A stretch of DNA of 64,000 bases from an uncultured SAR86 cluster bacterium. Lineage in GTDB: Bacteria; Pseudomonadota; Gammaproteobacteria; Magnimaribacterales; D2472. Below the pieces are notes generated by a model. The model did no database searches. It had not been told where the DNA came from and worked only from the letters and a program-made list of their open reading frames with translations. The DNA lies in NCBI GenBank assembly GCA_902624425.1, contig CACNXK010000004.1, positions 32,547-96,546 of the forward strand, in the 5' to 3' direction. This document shows, in pieces, positions 20,342-26,896 of this stretch. A program made the position numbers and the translations under genes. How positions within the stretch are numbered: position 1 is the first letter of the stretch; each line of letters starts with the position of its first letter.

Positions 20342-22924
20342 TTAAAAATTATATTCCAGATTTAGATTTACAAGTCTTCCACGAGGATCATGAACTCTTG
20401 TATCAAAGCTGAAATCGGGAGCATCGTACAATCTAGGAGCAGATTCATCTAGCGCATTAATTATTGCAATACCAAAATTGATATTGCCTTCATTAAGATC
20501 TATTGTTTTTTTGGCTGAGATATCAAAAACCAAAAAGGAATCAACTTTATTCTCATATCCTAGACTTGCTCCAAGACCTGTTATTGGTCTCTCATTAGTA
20601 TATCCATCTATATACCTTGTAATTAAACTGAAAAGATAATCCTTATGTTCCCAATCTATGAAAGCATTCAAGCGTTTCTTTGGAAGAGAGTGGGTGTGTG
20701 AATCATAATTAAATTTACCAACCCTGTTAATCATTTTTGAAACACCGTCTGAAGAAATTTGCGGTGTTAGGAACTCATCAAATACGGTTCCTTTAACTCT
20801 AAGGTTTATTGGTGAGTAATTTTTTAACTCAAACATATAGTCAAATTGAAAATCTGTACCGCTTATTTTTGTATTTTCCTCATTGAAATACGTTGTCGTT
20901 ACGCCAATAAGATCACCAAATTCATTTCTTGTAATACTTGGACCAAAAGGATCTTGAGTTAACAGGGCTTGAGCACTTTCAACTTCAATACGATCCTCAT
21001 AATCAACTTCCCAGTAATCGATTGAAAGCTTATAACTATCTTTTTGGAAAATTAATCCAAAATTTTGATTAGATGATGTTGAGGGTTTTAAGTCTGGATT
21101 ACCAATCGAAGCTTGCCTAACAAATACTGAGTCATCGATATCTCTCACGCTACCAAGATTAATCTGGCTTGAGAACATTTGAGCCATAGATGGAGCTGAA
21201 AATGCACTACCTCTTGAAAATCTTAACGTCAAAGATTCATTAAGGTTGTATTTCATGGATAATTTTGGATCAAATGAAGATTCGTTTTTCATTTGTTCAT
21301 AGCGTCCTGCAATTCTTATATCAAGTGCTTCAAAGAACCTCCTTTCAGCCTCAACAAAAAGCGCTTTACCATTTCTACTTTTTGATACATTTTTTCCTCC
21401 GCCAAGAAAGAAGAGGTCAGCTGTTTTGATGAGTTTGCCATCAGTATCAAATTCAGCCCGACTAACCTCATCATAAAATATATCGAGGCTCTCATTATTA
21501 ATTTGAAATCCATAAGCATATTTAATATTTTTAATTTCTGCTCTGAAAATACCATTAAGACTTAGTAGATCAGCACTTTTATTTGACACCTCAGCACCTC
21601 TTACAAAATCTATTAGTGATTGAGAATTTTGAGATGAATCAAATATATTCCACATTTCATCACCGTTAGGGCCGCCATTTCCTTGAATTGCAGCTAAGAA
21701 TCTTGAATCAATAATATCGGGTCTGTAATGAAAATTTGTGTGTTCACTTTTGGTTAATGAGATTTCAGCTTCCGTTTGATTAGCTAACTCAAAGTATGTA
21801 GTTACCCCAAAATGTTTTTGCTCAATATCTTTTGGAGAGTAAGGGGATTTATATTCAGCTCCAAGTGGTCTTCCATACCAAACAACCGGAACATTAAATG
21901 GACTTCCACCTTCACCAGGCAGAATGCTTCGGGATAGAAAAGGAAGTGCAGGATAGGAGGGTGATTGGGGATTATCATTTACATTCACATTTGAAGATAT
22001 AAAAGTGAAATTTATATCTACTAAATTATTATCTGAATAGAGGTTTATGTAATTTTTCTTATGACTTTCATCATTTACGATATTGAATCTTTCGCCATAA
22101 AGAAACCTGCAAAATGATCCATCAAGAATGCCTCCATTACTTTCACAGTTTGGATCAGGCACGAATGTTGTTTGGTTTGGATAATCTCCAGCATAAATTC
22201 CTGATTCAATAGTATCTGGGCCTAAAAGTTTAAAAGTTTTACCGAGGCCACTTAATCCAAGCTCTGCAATGCCAGGTATTTCCTTAGCTGAGAGAGGTGA
22301 CCTTTCTAATCTGTTATGCCCAACAACATAATTAATATTTCTAAATTTTCCGCCATAAAGCAATCCGATAGTGTCATCATTCTGGTCATAGTTTGAAGTA
22401 GACTGCCTTCCAGCTTTGATTCTTAAACCATCAAACTCTCGATAGGTTATAAAATTAACAACTCCGGCAATTGCATCTGAACCGTAAGTTGATGTTGCGC
22501 CTTCCTTTAAGATTTCTGTTCTCTCTAAAGCTATCTCTGGAACTATATTTATATCAATATATCCTTCGCCTTCATTTGAGGGTGTTCCAGCAAACGTATG
22601 CCTTTTAGAATTAATTAATATTAGGGTTGAGGCTTGCTCAAGCCCCCTTAAAGTTAAGGAGGCCATCCCCTGATCAACACCCTCGAGGGCATTGGATTGA
22701 AATCTTGAACCTGAACTTATATTTAGATATTTACTAATCTCTGCAACATTAGTTATATTCAGTTGGCCATATTCCTCTGAAGTAATTACTTCAATTGGAG
22801 ATGAATCATCTTCTAGTACTTTGATGAGACTACCAGTTACAACAACTTCCTCTATATCTGCTTCAATAAATTGAAACAAAAATAAATATATAGTTAAAAG
22901 AGAAAAAAAATATTTTTTGTTCAT
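20342..22924 (-). CDS. TonB-dependent receptor, substrate unknown
   Basis: Signal peptide, IEEVVVTGS TonB box, plug motif EILKEGATSTYGSDAIAGVVNFIT, C-terminal LEYNF. Confidence 0.93.
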   Translation of the reverse strand: MNKKYFFSLLTIYLFLFQFIEADIEEVVVTGSLIKVLEDDSSPIEVITSEEYGQLNITNVAEISKYLNISSGSRFQSNALEGVDQGMASLTLRGLEQASTLILINSKRHTFAGTPSNEGEGYIDINIVPEIALERTEILKEGATSTYGSDAIAGVVNFITYREFDGLRIKAGRQSTSNYDQNDDTIGLLYGGKFRNINYVVGHNRLERSPLSAKEIPGIAELGLSGLGKTFKLLGPDTIESGIYAGDYPNQTTFVPDPNCESNGGILDGSFCRFLYGERFNIVNDESHKKNYINLYSDNNLVDINFTFISSNVNVNDNPQSPSYPALPFLSRSILPGEGGSPFNVPVVWYGRPLGAEYKSPYSPKDIEQKHFGVTTYFELANQTEAEISLTKSEHTNFHYRPDIIDSRFLAAIQGNGGPNGDEMWNIFDSSQNSQSLIDFVRGAEVSNKSADLLSLNGIFRAEIKNIKYAYGFQINNESLDIFYDEVSRAEFDTDGKLIKTADLFFLGGGKNVSKSRNGKALFVEAERRFFEALDIRIAGRYEQMKNESSFDPKLSMKYNLNESLTLRFSRGSAFSAPSMAQMFSSQINLGSVRDIDDSVFVRQASIGNPDLKPSTSSNQNFGLIFQKDSYKLSIDYWEVDYEDRIEVESAQALLTQDPFGPSITRNEFGDLIGVTTTYFNEENTKISGTDFQFDYMFELKNYSPINLRVKGTVFDEFLTPQISSDGVSKMINRVGKFNYDSHTHSLPKKRLNAFIDWEHKDYLFSLITRYIDGYTNERPITGLGASLGYENKVDSFLVFDISAKKTIDLNEGNINFGIAIINALDESAPRLYDAPDFSFDTRVHDPRGRLVNLNLEYNF

Positions 22925-22975: not shown

Positions 22976-23001
22976 AAAAAAGCCCCTAAAAAGGGGCTTT
23001 T
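22976..23001. terminator. intrinsic terminator after the His-rich receptor (bidirectional shape)
   Basis: AAAAAAGCCCCT-AAAA-AGGGGCTTTT. Confidence 0.85.
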
Positions 23002-23017
23002 AATTAATGCTTAGATC

Positions 23018-25282
23018 TTAAAAAGTTAAGTTAAATCTTATTCCATAATTCCTTCCAGGAAGAGGAACTTGATTTTTAACAAATGATGAATGATTTCTTG
23101 CAACTTCGTCTAGAAGATTATTTGCAAAAACAGAAACCCTAAGAGAGTTACCATTTAAATCAAATGTTTTTACAAGTTTCGTGTCTAACATTTGATACCC
23201 CATTGTTGGAGTCTCTTCTTCAGCCACATCCGTTTGATCATCAACATCTTTAAAACTTAGATCAAAGAGGTAATCGTTAGCAAAATATTTTACTGAATAA
23301 ATATTTCTTGCTGGGCTTAGTCTTGGAATGTTCATTCCATCAGCTAGAGAGCCATTAACAACATCTCTTCCAAAAGAAACCTCTAAATCACCGTTATCAA
23401 GGTTAAAGATTCTCCCAATTTCAAGCTCATATCCATCCAACTCAGCATTTTGTTGCATGTAATTTGCTTCAATTAATCCTTCAGCATGACCATGCTCATC
23501 ATGATCATCATCTTCACTCATAGCTCCCATGTGATCATCGTGATCATCTTCATCATGAATATCCATCAGGTAAACATAATTATCAACATCATTTCTAAAT
23601 ATTGTTGCCGAAGCAAAGAAGTTATCGCTCGAATAGCTTAGAGCAATATCGATGTTATTAGATGTCTCAGTTGCTAGATTTACATCTCCAGTCTCAAATC
23701 TGCCTGTTGCCAAGTGAGGACCATTCATGAAAAGCTCTACAACTGATGGAGCTCTCTCAACGCTTGAATAAGCAAAATTTAGATCCCAATTATCATTGAT
23801 TGGTCTACATAGGTCGATTGCAAAGCTTAAATTGTTTGAGCTAAAGGAATAGTTTTCTGTTTCTTCCTCTTCTTCGTGCTCATCATGATCTTCGTCTTCA
23901 TCATGGTGATCTTCTTCATGATGACCAGTTACAGAACCATTAGTATCTATTTGGTCATAACGAATACCAAAACTTAACTCAAATAGATCAAAATCTCTTC
24001 TTGCAAAATAACCAAGCGTTAATTCTTCTCTATCAGCAGGGTTCATAAAAGCTTCTTCGCCAATTATTGAGACTGTTTCATCAGAAATATTTAAAGAAAC
24101 TTTTTGAGTCATTAGATCATTTGATAAATCAAAAATCATTCCATACTCTGAAGAATCATTTGTGAAAGTAGTTGGACCTTCTTCACCATGTCCATGATCA
24201 TCATGATCTTCATCGCTATGATCTTCATCACCATGCTCTTCCTCAGCATGCTGTTCAGTATGGGAATAATCTGAGTCCTGAAGGAAAAAGTCTAAGTTTT
24301 TAATTAGATCGTTATCTACTGCTACTGAACCTCGAATAGTGAACTTATCAGAGTCAGTGTTTGAGAAGATTCTCTCTTCTTCATGCTCATCATGACCTTC
24401 TTCTTCATCACCGTGTTCATCTCCATGATCATCATGTCCTTCATGACCTTCTCCATGATATGGCACTCCAAAAAGACTTTCTGAACTTGAAAAGGAAAGA
24501 CCTACATATCCCCAATCTGCAACCTTAGAAACACCAAATCTTGTTGCTTCTTGTGCAGAGTCAGAATTTTCAAGGAATCCCATATCTTCTTCATGTTCAT
24601 CATGATCTCCATCCTCATCATGATCTTCATCTTCATCATGATGTTCTTCCTCATGAAGAATTGCACCATCTGGAACATCATAATTTCCAAAAGAAGAATC
24701 ACTGTATGAGAAATACACATTCAATCCACCCAAGTTATCCTTAACAGAAAAACTTTGAGCATCTCCAGAATTTACAGATTGTGTCTCAAGACCTAACTTT
24801 AATACTCTATCAACAACATCTTCCATTGCGATTGTGTTATCAACAATGTTCACAATTCCGCCTGTAACACCATTGGCATATAACAATGAGGACGGACCGC
24901 GGACAACTTCTATTTGCTGAATATCACTAAGATCAACTTCATTTTTATGATCAGCACCGATTCCAGCAACATCCCTGTTTACTAGACCATTAGTTAAGAT
25001 TTTAACTCTTGAGCCACTTAGACCTCTGATTATTGGTTGACCAACTGCTGATCCATAATCTGCAGACGATACACCAACCAAGGAATCCAAAGCTTCACCT
25101 AAACTAACAGTTCCCAAATCAGAAATATCAGAACCGCTTAAGATATGAAGCGGATCTCCAATTTCATCCTCAGTAACATTTAGTAGCGAGGCTTGAACTA
25201 CAACCTCTTCGACTTCATCCGAATGTATGAAGTTTGCTGAGAAAATACCTAGCATTGCTAGTATTAATAATTTATTTTTCAT
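23018..25282 (-). CDS. His/acidic-rich TonB-dependent receptor, ZnuD-like metal uptake
   Basis: Signal peptide, VEEVVVQA, GQPIIRGLSGSRV, EVVRGPSSLLY, ELFMNGPHLATGRFETG, ARNHSSFVK..PLPGRN..F; five H/E/D-rich inserts. Confidence 0.9.
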   Translation of the reverse strand: MKNKLLILAMLGIFSANFIHSDEVEEVVVQASLLNVTEDEIGDPLHILSGSDISDLGTVSLGEALDSLVGVSSADYGSAVGQPIIRGLSGSRVKILTNGLVNRDVAGIGADHKNEVDLSDIQQIEVVRGPSSLLYANGVTGGIVNIVDNTIAMEDVVDRVLKLGLETQSVNSGDAQSFSVKDNLGGLNVYFSYSDSSFGNYDVPDGAILHEEEHHDEDEDHDEDGDHDEHEEDMGFLENSDSAQEATRFGVSKVADWGYVGLSFSSSESLFGVPYHGEGHEGHDDHGDEHGDEEEGHDEHEEERIFSNTDSDKFTIRGSVAVDNDLIKNLDFFLQDSDYSHTEQHAEEEHGDEDHSDEDHDDHGHGEEGPTTFTNDSSEYGMIFDLSNDLMTQKVSLNISDETVSIIGEEAFMNPADREELTLGYFARRDFDLFELSFGIRYDQIDTNGSVTGHHEEDHHDEDEDHDEHEEEEETENYSFSSNNLSFAIDLCRPINDNWDLNFAYSSVERAPSVVELFMNGPHLATGRFETGDVNLATETSNNIDIALSYSSDNFFASATIFRNDVDNYVYLMDIHDEDDHDDHMGAMSEDDDHDEHGHAEGLIEANYMQQNAELDGYELEIGRIFNLDNGDLEVSFGRDVVNGSLADGMNIPRLSPARNIYSVKYFANDYLFDLSFKDVDDQTDVAEEETPTMGYQMLDTKLVKTFDLNGNSLRVSVFANNLLDEVARNHSSFVKNQVPLPGRNYGIRFNLTF

Positions 25283-25286
25283 GTTT

Positions 25287-25338
25287 ACTCCTAAAAATTT
25301 AAAATTTAAAAATCAAAAAATTAAATTTTTGGTGGAGC
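25287..25338 (-). promoter_or_regulatory. mRNA hairpin able to sequester the receptor's Shine-Dalgarno (AGGAG) using the leader's Ala-Pro-Pro-Lys-Ile-stop codons
   Basis: mRNA reads GCUCC-ACC-AAAAAUUUAA [18 nt] UUAAAUUUUU-A-GGAGU AAAC AUG. Confidence 0.65.
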
Positions 25339-25605
25339 TCTCTGATGAAAATTTTTAGATATAGATTGGTCGGTTAGACTTAATAGTTCTGAGTCTTCAA
25401 TATCAAAATCTATAAAAGTTATATTTGTCTTAGAATTTACTAAGTTTTGTGATTGATTTTCTTCGCAATAATCGCAATCGATTTCAATAGCTTCATCATG
25501 TATTTCAAAAGCTTCCGCAATATGTTGTATTTCATGAGAAGTAGCTAGGGCAAGAAATAAAAGCCCAAGCAAAAAAGGTGTTTTATTTTTAAAATCAGTG
25601 ATCAT
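25321..25605 (-). CDS. putative metal-sensing arrest/leader peptide (DUF2946/CruR-like: TM + His/CxxC + RAPP)
   Basis: PFLLGLLFLALATS hydrophobic stretch, H24xxxH28, H36, C44DYC47, R89APP92; ends 38 nt before the receptor ATG. Confidence 0.8.
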   Translation of the reverse strand: MITDFKNKTPFLLGLLFLALATSHEIQHIAEAFEIHDEAIEIDCDYCEENQSQNLVNSKTNITFIDFDIEDSELLSLTDQSISKNFHQRAPPKI

Positions 25606-26653
25606 GTTTGAGACATACTAAACCATTAATAGAACCACTCGCAAGGTCTTTAATAGTTTTATCAGCTTCTGAAACATTTCTTGCTTCAACAGGAACGGGA
25701 TCAATCTTTCCAGACTTAACTAAATCCATCAGCTCACCCATCTCAGCTAAGCTTCCAACATATGTTCCAGTTAGCGTTCTTGCGGTTAATGTAACCAGAG
25801 GTAATTGAAGAGTAGTTTGGCCGCCAAGGAGTCCTACTAATACGTAAGTGCCGCCTCTTACTAGACCAAAAAGACCATAAGCAAATTCAAAAGCTGGAGC
25901 TGCTCCAACAAAATCAATAACGCTTTTAGCTCCTCCGCCAGTGATTTCAAATATCTTCATTGCAGCATCTTCATCATTAGAGTTTATGGCTGCTGAGGCT
26001 CCTGCTTCTTTCGCAATAGCCAGCTTCTCATCATCGATATCAACAACAATTGGATTAATATCATAAACAGCTTTTAATATTTTCAATGACAATAAACCCA
26101 TCCCTCCAGCGCCAACAACCACAACTGATTTTTGACCCTCAACAAGATTAGCTTTTTTTATAGCGCTGTAAGCAGTTAATCCTCTACAAGCATAACTTCC
26201 TGCAAGATTATCGTGAGTATCTCCAGCATCAAAAAGATATTTTTTATCAGGTACCAAGACATATTCACCATATCCTCCATCTCTTGTGATACCGATATTC
26301 CTGTTTGTTGTAATTCCACAATAATGCTCGTTGCCAATATGACAAAGTTCACAATCACTGCATCCAATCCATGGGTATACTACGTATTTTTTGCCGATCT
26401 CAACATCGCTAACACTTTCGCCAAGCTCAACAACTTCTCCAAAGACTTCATGACCCATAGCAAGATCTTTGGCAGGAGTAGGTAGTTTGGCACCACCACC
26501 TAAATCAAAGAAACCCTCATATATATGAACATCCGAATGACAGACTCCACATGAAACTGTTTTAACAAGAATTTCTTCACCCACTGGAATAGGCTTTTCA
26601 ATTTCAACCTGCTTTATAGGTTTACCATTCTCTATGATTTTGTATGACTTCAT
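25595..26653 (-). CDS. zinc-dependent alcohol dehydrogenase (MDR family)
   Basis: CGVCHSD, GHEVFG, structural Zn site CSDCELC...C, GAGGMG. Confidence 0.93.
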   Translation of the reverse strand: MKSYKIIENGKPIKQVEIEKPIPVGEEILVKTVSCGVCHSDVHIYEGFFDLGGGAKLPTPAKDLAMGHEVFGEVVELGESVSDVEIGKKYVVYPWIGCSDCELCHIGNEHYCGITTNRNIGITRDGGYGEYVLVPDKKYLFDAGDTHDNLAGSYACRGLTAYSAIKKANLVEGQKSVVVVGAGGMGLLSLKILKAVYDINPIVVDIDDEKLAIAKEAGASAAINSNDEDAAMKIFEITGGGAKSVIDFVGAAPAFEFAYGLFGLVRGGTYVLVGLLGGQTTLQLPLVTLTARTLTGTYVGSLAEMGELMDLVKSGKIDPVPVEARNVSEADKTIKDLASGSINGLVCLKHDH

Positions 26654-26656
26654 GAT

Positions 26657-26896
26657 TTATTTTGAAACTTTGTATTTAATTATTGTACTATTTTTTATAT
26701 CTTCCCATCGCTTTTTTTCGGTTAGATAGCACAAGATTGAATCAGAATCTTCACTTTGATTAAAGGAGTACCCCTCTGGTATTAAGTTTTTATTAAGAGA
26801 GCATTTTTCAGTAATTGTCCGTCCGCTTTTTAGAGACTTGAAGGTAATTTCAACTTCTGCAGATTCTAATAGTTTTTTAAGATCTTTTATCTCCAT
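26657..26896 (-). CDS. small hypothetical protein, possible SH3/Sm-like beta-barrel (WYL_2-like)
   Basis: Likely start MEIKDLKKLL; pattern VEITFKSLKSGR..KCSL..IP...ILCY..EKKRWEDI. Confidence 0.6.
   Translation of the reverse strand: MEIKDLKKLLESAEVEITFKSLKSGRTITEKCSLNKNLIPEGYSFNQSEDSDSILCYLTEKKRWEDIKNSTIIKYKVSK

Follow-up and report, generated by a model that had tools for sequence, protein, structure and literature searches.

In the SecM and MifM systems, arrest of translation near the C-terminus of a leader peptide opens an mRNA hairpin that sequesters the downstream gene's Shine-Dalgarno (SD) sequence. Arrest peptides that sense metals are a recent addition, and only two prototypes have been characterized, CruR and CutF, both of which respond to copper. 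In the available parts of the published work, CruR of Bordetella pertussis (Bp2923, a DUF2946 protein) is described as a copper-responsive regulator encoded upstream of the TonB-dependent transporter BfrG/CrtA; it combines a signal peptide with CXXC and RAPP motifs, mutations in RAPP abolish expression, copper relieves the arrest, the distance between the motifs is important, and regulation takes effect through Rho-dependent termination (PMC9426467). Arrest of CruR was demonstrated in the PURE system, where the P- and A-sites of the stalled ribosome are occupied by the two Pro codons, and is abolished by an R-to-A change, and upstream open reading frames (uORFs) with signal peptides and RAPP or RGPP motifs are reported to be widespread before genes for TonB-dependent receptors in Gram-negative bacteria (PMC12992588, available parts). 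CrtA loci are said to carry, as a rule, a PepSY_TM gene after the transporter (PMC12914433, likewise in part). For CutF, a DUF2946 protein of Rhodobacter capsulatus, the accessible sections describe a stem-loop that shields the SD of cutO and is opened by stalling, and the authors suggest that some members of the CutF family may sense other metals (PMC9973294, bioRxiv 10.1101/2025.02.05.636593). Here we present a computational analysis of a related locus in a 64,000-nt stretch of DNA (hereafter the window, to which coordinates refer unless another locus is named) from an uncultured SAR86 cluster bacterium of the order Magnimaribacterales (contig CACNXK010000004.1), in which a small uORF ending in RAPP, hereafter the leader, precedes the gene for a ZnuD-like TonB-dependent receptor.

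The feature is real and conserved, and the model of a translational switch is supported by comparative and statistical evidence. We consider it probable that the leader is a regulatory uORF of the CruR/CutF type, with a Sec-targeted peptide, a His/Cys metal motif and an arrest at RAPP that would control the ZnuD-like receptor by sequestration of its SD in the style of SecM and MifM. Metal-sensing RAPP arrest-peptide uORFs are a kind that has already been published, and an earlier reading of this stretch (the original prediction) overrated the novelty of the locus by not recognizing this type. What is new is the ZnuD-type target, a peptide family that is invisible to Pfam and near-universal in the order, a strict ruler of 44–46 residues between the conserved Cys and the Arg of RAPP, and the additional role of the arrest codons as anti-SD.

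The locus resembles CruR in that a small ORF lies directly before the gene for a TonB-dependent transporter and encodes a signal-like segment, followed by CXXC and, close to the C-terminus, by RAPP and a few additional residues. The spacing from the metal motif to RAPP, which matters in CruR, is conserved, the mature part of the peptide is predicted to be unstructured, and we propose that arrest keeps the uptake gene ON in this case as well. Unlike in CruR, the receptor is ZnuD-like rather than CrtA-like and is not followed by a PepSY_TM gene, the leader contains an extra conserved His, and the proposed output is SD sequestration rather than Rho-dependent termination. The locus is similar to CutF in having an mRNA stem-loop over the SD of the next gene that is predicted to be opened by stalling; however, the anti-SD of CutF (CTTC) is located in an intergenic stem-loop, whereas here it is contained within the arrest codons, and the motif is PPP in CutF but RAPP in the leader. 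Furthermore, copper induces an EF-P-dependent stalling of CutF that switches on a detoxifying oxidase, whereas the target here is a protein for uptake and the opposite polarity is expected. As in SecM-secA and MifM-yidC2, the 5' arm of the hairpin is located in the 3' coding region of an exported leader, the SD is sequestered and arrest would disrupt the pairing, according to our computations, but the downstream gene does not encode the machinery that releases the arrest, and the His/Cys motif suggests that a ligand is involved.

All sequence elements and coordinates named in the original prediction are present on the minus strand, to the base, and RNAfold of positions 25270-25360 (minus strand) returned exactly the hairpin that it had described, in which a 3x1 internal loop separates a 10-bp AU helix from a 5-bp helix between GCUCC and GGAGU, both in the minimum free energy (MFE) structure and in the centroid (Table 1). 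An outer helix in the RNAfold structure also covers the start codon of the receptor gene. The MFE of -16.1 kcal/mol compares with a mean of -8.23 kcal/mol (sd 2.37) for dinucleotide shuffles (z = -3.32), only 1 of 200 of which was as stable, so that the fold is better than such controls. The hairpin was unchanged in a fold of 181 nt (z = -2.17; 3 of 200 shuffles as stable). A scan for terminators found no site at 25287-25338, the only sites being at 23001-22978, 25909-25893, 25261-25249 and 22995-22983, and a search of Rfam with 24900-26000, both strands, gave no matches at E-values up to 1. The reading of the hairpin as an intrinsic (Rho-independent) terminator or attenuator was rejected, since the stem is AU-rich, it is followed by AGGAGUAAAC and the scan was empty there.

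The loop of the hairpin (25303-25320) and the homologous loops in other loci (L002, L039 and others) vary in length by whole units similar to TTTTAAA or TTTTTAA. The gap from stop to start codon is 38, 39 or 48 nt in the source genus and 62 nt in L039, and the arms are kept, which suggests repeat slippage in the loop.

A stalled ribosome covers about -12 to +15 nt around its P-site. We defined the footprint of the stalled ribosome as this interval with the P-site on the first Pro codon, an assignment of the P- and A-sites that follows the consulted parts of PMC12992588. In the genus of the source genome, the probability that the SD is paired to the footprint is 1.00, as is the probability that it is paired to the Ala-Pro-Pro (APP) codons. 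For the comparison across the order, 160 loci were fetched, from which seven second copies from the same genomes and one truncated match were removed, leaving 152 loci, one per genome, in 20 genera. Folding covered 151 of these (one with an N was dropped), with segments that began 18 nt ahead of the Arg codon and ended 6 nt beyond the start codon. The mean probability was 0.93 for the GGAG of the SD to be paired and 0.87 for it to be paired within the footprint, and the genus mean for the footprint was at least 0.59 in 19 of the 20 genera; the predicted pairing is kept in relatives. When the context was lengthened by 120 nt, including 57 nt more upstream and 39 nt more downstream, the genus mean was 0.83 and values of at least 0.5 were obtained in 18 of the 20 genera.

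The partner of the SD was the APP codons (probability of at least 0.5) in 114 of the 151 loci and in 18 of the 20 genera. The central claim of the original prediction, that the RAPP codons themselves are the anti-SD, is to this extent borne out, but it does not extend to the genus g16, where the tail and stop codons take this part, nor to g15, where a local hairpin is formed. The general rule is that the anti-SD is located inside the footprint of the arrested ribosome, with the APP codons as partner in most, but not all, of the order.

In g16 (21 loci; L021, L051-L070), the codons GCA CCA CCA do not contain CUCC and the SD is GGAGA; here, the tail Asn-Ser-stop (AAC UCU UAA) pairs with UUAGGAG with a probability of 0.94. 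The anti-SD is shifted by 6–9 nt in these loci, yet is still within the footprint of the stalled ribosome. In g15 (L138, L142-L155), the gap is 54–65 nt and the SD is located in a local hairpin (AAUUUCUU AGG AGGAAAUU), unpaired to the end of the ORF, and this lineage may use a different output. Yet another locus, in the unrelated genome G274 (L162:1459-1990, plus strand), contains a bona fide Pfam DUF2946 ORF with RAPPENRIF at its C-terminus, and a PCuAC-like gene lies 88 nt downstream. In its MFE fold (z = -3.1; 0 of 200 shuffles as stable), CCU of the second Pro followed by GAA AAU CGC pairs with GC-UGAUUUUCAGG of the SD, which hints that the use of arrest codons as anti-SD could be a general design. 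The gaps in the high-GC DUF2946 loci L161 and L163 are long, and these loci are uninformative on pairing.

Several controls indicate that the pairing exceeds what is common in the genome and what the peptide sequence imposes. Among 113 crudely called genes with a GGAG SD in the genome (a set that may include the leader-receptor locus), the SD was paired with a mean probability of 0.56, and paired to the equivalent window upstream with a mean probability of 0.17; such upstream pairing reached at least 0.9 in only 4% of these genes. As a synonymous null, the last codons of each locus were recoded 40 times with the codon usage of the source genome. The natural sequences had an MFE of -15.7 vs. 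-12.25 in the recodings (genus means) and were lower in 19 of the 20 genera, and their probability of pairing to the footprint was 0.89 vs. 0.72 (genus means), with higher values in 16 genera. Shuffling of the spacer gave an MFE of -12.24, the natural value being lower in 18 genera. Likewise, the full arms fitted their own partners better than swapped partners from other genera (-10.20 vs. -8.45 kcal/mol; 18 genera), a value that none of 20,000 genus permutations reached, and the same was true of the APP-SD core (-8.16 vs. -7.34 kcal/mol; 16 genera; permutation 0.0001). GCU-CC is found with GGAGU and CCU-CC with GGAGG, and CCU-CC never occurs with GGAGU, an attractive pattern that is based on a small number of events. 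The footprint geometry, the order-wide pairing and the stability of natural over recoded sequences in 19 of the 20 genera thereby provide computational support for the ON/OFF logic of secM-secA and mifM that had been proposed for this locus.

The leader family is broadly distributed in the order. A profile built from 15 sequences recovered it in 202 of 266 genomes, including 51 of 57 high-quality genomes, and in 21 of 22 genera; the single protein, used as a query, had matches in 31 of the 61 related genomes searched. The profile matched 143 clusters, all of about 90 aa, among 1.84 billion protein cluster representatives. Of these clusters, 109 end in xxPP and at most six additional residues (101 RAPP, 3 RGPP, 3 QAPP, 1 NAPP and 1 RSPP); the other 34 are mostly truncated or chimeric, as judged by eye. 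Of the 152 loci, 139 have RAPP as their arrest motif and 13 have QAPP, all of the latter in the genus g9. The tail after PP has 1–5 residues in every locus and exactly two in 125, a conserved Cys is located 44–46 residues before the Arg of RAPP in 151, and CxxC is intact in 138. The residues H28, C44, R89, A90, P91 and P92 are invariant in one alignment (A1), and C44, P91 and P92 in another (A2; 108 sequences), in which H28 is at least 90% conserved. In the six frames of the 963-kb source assembly, no ORF of 40–250 aa other than the leader has R[AG]PP at its C-terminus with a tail of up to eight residues.

Outside of these motifs, the identity among leaders drops to about 25%. The N-terminus has a basic n-region followed by a hydrophobic stretch, FLLGLLFLALATS, and is similar to a signal peptide. 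In an AlphaFold2 (AF2) model built on 108 sequences, the sole confident helix comprises residues 9–33 and the remainder is predicted to be disordered (mean pLDDT 68, pTM 0.29). A restriction of conservation to motifs and spacer length is characteristic of regulatory nascent peptides, unlike folded proteins, and we classify the leader as such a peptide because of the low identity outside the motifs and because the AF2 model shows no order beyond the signal helix.

Instead of the second Cys, the residue N, F, T, A, S, D or H is present at this position of a number of loci (L015, L028, L074-L076, L086-L087, L093-L097 and others), all of which retain C44, H28, the spacing of 44–46 residues and RAPP. 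In the 13 loci of the genus g9 (L022, L029, L098-L108), QAPP is mostly followed by a tail of four residues (KIII, KIKI, KINI), and the SD GGAGG is paired with GCR-CCU-CC.

Table 1. Features of the leader-receptor locus, with positions in the window.
Feature	Position	Strand	Basis
RAPP arrest-motif codons AGA GCU CCA CCA	25330..25341	-	Sequence; arrest motif as published (PMC9426467, PMC12992588; available parts)
Anti-SD arm GCUCC (Ala codon and CC of the first Pro codon)	25334..25338	-	Pairs with GGAGU in MFE and centroid structures
AU-helix 5' arm AAAAAUUUAA (last base of second Pro codon, Lys, Ile and stop codons)	25321..25330	-	Fold, sequence
Leader tail AAA ATT TAA; stop codon	25323-25321	-	Sequence
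U-rich loop, 18 nt	25303..25320	-	Fold, sequence
AU-helix 3' arm UUAAAUUUUU (RNA), TTAAATTTTT (DNA letters)	25293..25302	-	Fold, sequence
Single A between the AU-helix 3' arm and the SD	25292	-	Sequence
SD GGAGU of the receptor gene, predicted to be sequestered	25287..25291	-	Folds
AAAC spacer, then receptor ATG	ATG at 25282-25280	-	Sequence
Outer helix: AUGAAAA (receptor start codon and AAAA) with UUUUCAU (Phe-His codons)	25276..25282 with 25345-25351	-	RNAfold
Leader ORF (uORF), 94 aa, MITDFKNK..HEIQH..CDYC..HQRAPPKI and stop	25321..25605	-	ORF list, homologues
Hydrophobic signal-peptide-like segment, residues 9-23, TPFLLGLLFLALATS	25537..25581	-	Sequence; AF2 helix 9-33
HEIQH (H24, H28), putative metal ligand pair	25522..25536	-	Conservation of H28
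CDYC (C44-C47), CxxC motif	25465..25476	-	C44 invariant
TonB-dependent receptor, 754 aa, ZnuD-like, with His/Asp/Glu-rich inserts	23018..25282	-	Pfam Plug and barrel, NCBIfam, PDB
Terminator-like hairpin closing the uORF-receptor unit	22978..23001	-	Terminator scan
Zn-type alcohol dehydrogenase (ADH), stop codon overlapping the uORF start; possible co-transcribed upstream gene in the source genus	25595..26653	-	ORF list, Pfam

The sequence, the fold, the order-wide conservation of motifs and spacing, and the geometry of the pairing are computational observations, from which we infer the arrest itself, the release by metal and the regulatory effect. An arrested ribosome would have Pro91 in the P-site (25335-25333) and Pro92 in the A-site, and would cover positions 25347-25320, where the stop codon and the two 5' arms, GCUCC and AAAAAUUUAA, are located. 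The distance from the leading edge of the ribosome to the SD (25291-25287) would then be about 28 nt, leaving room for a 30S subunit, and the short, length-constrained tail would serve to hold the stop codon and the AU arm within the footprint. Arrest would free the SD, so that the receptor is translated (ON), and release of the arrest would lead to termination, upon which the hairpin would re-form over the SD and, partly, over the AUG, turning the receptor OFF. The ruler of 44–46 residues would place the Cys motif 46–48 residues from the residue in the P-site, presumably at the translocon or immediately beyond the exit tunnel, and the release would most likely occur when the His/Cys motif, on leaving the tunnel or translocon, undergoes metal-dependent chelation or folding and thereby pulls on the chain. 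We propose that the arrest is ON without metal and released to OFF with metal because the target is an uptake receptor, a polarity that has likewise been proposed for CruR.

Several observations weigh against the proposed switch. Recoded sequences still pair the SD to the footprint at 0.72, which means that most of the occlusion follows from the peptide sequence alone, and the natural sequence is on average only within the best ~18% of its own recodings by MFE. CUCC is expected in about 64% of GCN-CCN-CCN sets from the codon usage (GCU 0.42, CCU 0.37). Position-specific covariation, covariation being a check named in the original prediction, was not significant in a test on phylogenetically independent pairs (4 supported pairs, 2.1 the same way and 0 the opposite way, median p 0.5), for which only 8 changes of the base after GGAG were available; a complementary test gave no direction. 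The result for swapped arms could partly come from lineage-specific lengths of A/U runs, the genera g15 (probability of pairing to the footprint 0.35) and g13 (0.59) depart from the pattern, and the AU-rich composition of the stem casts doubt on its stability at low seawater temperature or in vivo. As for the peptide, the metal motif varies, with 14 of the 152 loci lacking the second Cys, and QAPP is found throughout g9, whereas the R-to-A change is described to abolish the arrest in CruR (PMC12992588, available parts). Finally, all 21 relatives examined, the source genome included, contain rho, the 3' half of the ORF together with the spacer has a mild excess of C (14%) over G (9%), and no ZnuA-family gene was found in 21 relatives (genomes G000-G044), which leaves the zinc route incomplete.

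The observations on pairing raise the possibility that the hairpin is a passive by-product of the APP codons and an A/U-rich context, with the small protein being an exported metal-binding partner of the receptor. The high pairing of the recodings, the frequency at which CUCC is expected and the outcome of the independent-pairs test would all be consistent with this, as would the match of A-rich Lys, Asn and stop codons to the U-rich spacers that are typical of an AT-rich genome, and the background in which an SD is already paired at 0.56. However, the low identity, the conservation of nothing but motifs and spacer, and the predicted disorder of the mature part are unlike a folded partner, and RAPP or QAPP with a tail of 1–5 residues in all 152 loci keeps the stop codon in the footprint. 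Moreover, natural folds beat the nulls in 18–19 of the 20 genera, g16 uses its tail codons as anti-SD although it has no CUCC, and pairing to the upstream window is otherwise rare in the genome. We therefore regard a mere by-product as quite unlikely, and read the results to mean that RAPP(K) codons are intrinsically similar to an anti-SD, a property that selection did not have to make from nothing but to which it has adjusted the codons and the spacer.

The presence of rho and the excess of C bear on a different explanation, in which the same arrest uORF controls Rho-dependent termination or polarity, such that the stalled ribosome blocks the loading of Rho and the hairpin is secondary or incidental. 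This would agree with CruR, the closest characterized analogue before a TonB-dependent transporter, which acts via Rho in the published description (PMC9426467, available parts). On the other hand, the spacer is merely 32–65 nt long and nearly pure A/U, and a model with Rho only does not need a conserved hairpin over the SD, yet the hairpin beats the nulls in 18–19 of the 20 genera and the own arms fit best. We consider it unlikely that Rho provides the output in place of SD sequestration, although the two outputs can coexist.

The hydrophobic signal-like helix at the N-terminus of the leader is also what would be expected of a secretion monitor similar to SecM or VemP, in which the arrest is released solely by the pull of the Sec translocon and receptor synthesis is tied to export capacity. 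RAPP peptides were, in the sections consulted, first described as monitors of Sec and YidC (PMC7897499, PMC10987492). We find this very unlikely, considering that the downstream gene does not encode a component of Sec or YidC, that the invariant Cys/His at a fixed distance of 44–46 residues from RAPP point to ligand sensing, and that RAPP uORFs before TonB receptors are tied to metal homeostasis in the text available from PMC12992588. The metal-sensing switch with SD sequestration is therefore the hypothesis that we favor.

The relationship of the leader to the DUF2946 family, to which both CruR and CutF belong, is less clear. The leader has no family in Pfam or NCBIfam, and the weak matches to PyrI_C (E 0.0016) and BamP (E 0.023) were under the cut-offs and were rejected. 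No match of the leader to PF11162 (DUF2946; gathering score 23.7 bits) was obtained at E-values up to 1, and at E-values up to 10 none was found for 15 diverse members of the leader family or in a six-frame search of the genome. Among 108 cluster representatives of the leader family, four match PF11162 weakly (best E 0.0063). A profile-profile comparison with hhalign, for which only two true DUF2946 sequences could be used because matches were limited to 3 of 151 class-level genomes, gave a probability of 2.7% and aligned only the CxxC region. In view of this failed test for DUF2946, the family may be either a very divergent branch of DUF2946 or a convergent look-alike.

The gene downstream of the leader is consistently of the same kind. 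Each of the 152 loci has a gene that begins 32–65 nt past the leader stop codon (median 42), is preceded by an SD-like motif and encodes a signal-peptide-like N-terminus, the distance being 38 nt for the receptor in the window. In all 49 loci with at least 350 codons of flanking sequence, this gene encodes an orthologous receptor (38.5–100% identity), 45 of which contain His-rich acidic runs. The best of 26 NCBIfam models for the receptor is ZnuD (NF038289), matched over its full length with 202 bits against a cut-off of 950, so that the family threshold is not reached, and the best match in PDB is ZnuD, a zinc-piracy TonB-dependent receptor of Neisseria meningitidis (4rdr; E 1.9e-36), the next match having an E-value of 1e-8. 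Thus, the receptor is similar to ZnuD in its plug and barrel, its His/acidic-rich loops and its full-length match, but unlike ZnuD in its low score and in the lack of ZnuA in the relatives examined. From the likeness to ZnuD, our best guess is that the metal sensed is zinc.

The arrangement upstream of the leader is more variable. The ADH gene, which ends 8 nt past the leader ATG, is located upstream of the leader in 14 of the 49 loci examined. In the window, the leader ATG is inside the last codons of the ADH gene (ATGATCACTGA, 25595-25605, minus strand) with no obvious SD before it, and translation of the leader may be coupled to that of the dehydrogenase in the source genus. Two contigs from RNA libraries bridge ADH, the uORF and the start of the receptor gene (X4 record 8, 25140-26864, and X6 record 22, 24897-25710). 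They derive from four metatranscriptomic libraries of one study and inform on presence and bridging only, not on transcript ends, levels or strand; they are compatible with co-transcription of ADH, leader and receptor, but may also stem from carry-over of DNA.

A second TonB-dependent receptor of 860 aa, without His-rich inserts, is encoded directly downstream (20342-22924, minus strand). It is probably a separate transcription unit, because a hairpin that resembles a terminator (23001-22978) lies between the two receptor genes, as does a promoter-like site (22974-22946).

A convincing Zur/Fur palindrome was not seen upstream of the leader when several genera were inspected by eye. Genes of the FUR family were found in 15 of 21 relatives and in 11 of 12 high-quality genomes, and regulation by Zur is not evident because there is at most one such gene per genome. 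We suggest, tentatively and as a reading that is less likely than not, that a cis-encoded peptide sensor takes the place of a Zur-type metalloregulator, with the arrest at RAPP being released when the exported His/Cys motif senses periplasmic or translocon-proximal zinc, or another divalent trace metal, and with the arrest codons and the anti-SD residing in the same nine nucleotides. The genomes of the order are 0.7–1.8 Mb in size and the sequencing runs that contain the sequence are marine. The source is apparently a marine bacterium with a streamlined, AT-rich genome.

Among the 10 of 87 matching papers that our search of the full-text literature listed, those on arrest peptides do not use the term anti-Shine-Dalgarno, and the two in which all the terms sought occur deal, by their titles, with other subjects. 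A further search gave nothing on a SAR86 locus with TonB, zinc and uORF components; the supplementary tables of the cited papers may list members of the family. The words Shine-Dalgarno, stem-loop, hairpin and zinc are absent from the text of PMC12992588, as far as it was available.

Our findings extend the principle of metal-sensing arrest peptides to a ZnuD-type receptor as target and to abundant, streamlined marine bacteria. The use of arrest codons as anti-SD together with the ruler of 44–46 residues represents a compact and testable design, and the natural variants, such as the genus with QAPP, the lineages that have lost the second Cys and another genus in which the anti-SD has moved to the tail codons, are ready-made experiments. 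If the hypothesis is correct, the leader would provide a simple system for studies of how the binding of a ligand outside the ribosome releases an arrest at RAPP, and arrest at the protein level and switching at the RNA level would be encoded in one and the same set of nine nucleotides. It would also show how the uptake of trace metals can be controlled in genomes with few transcription factors.

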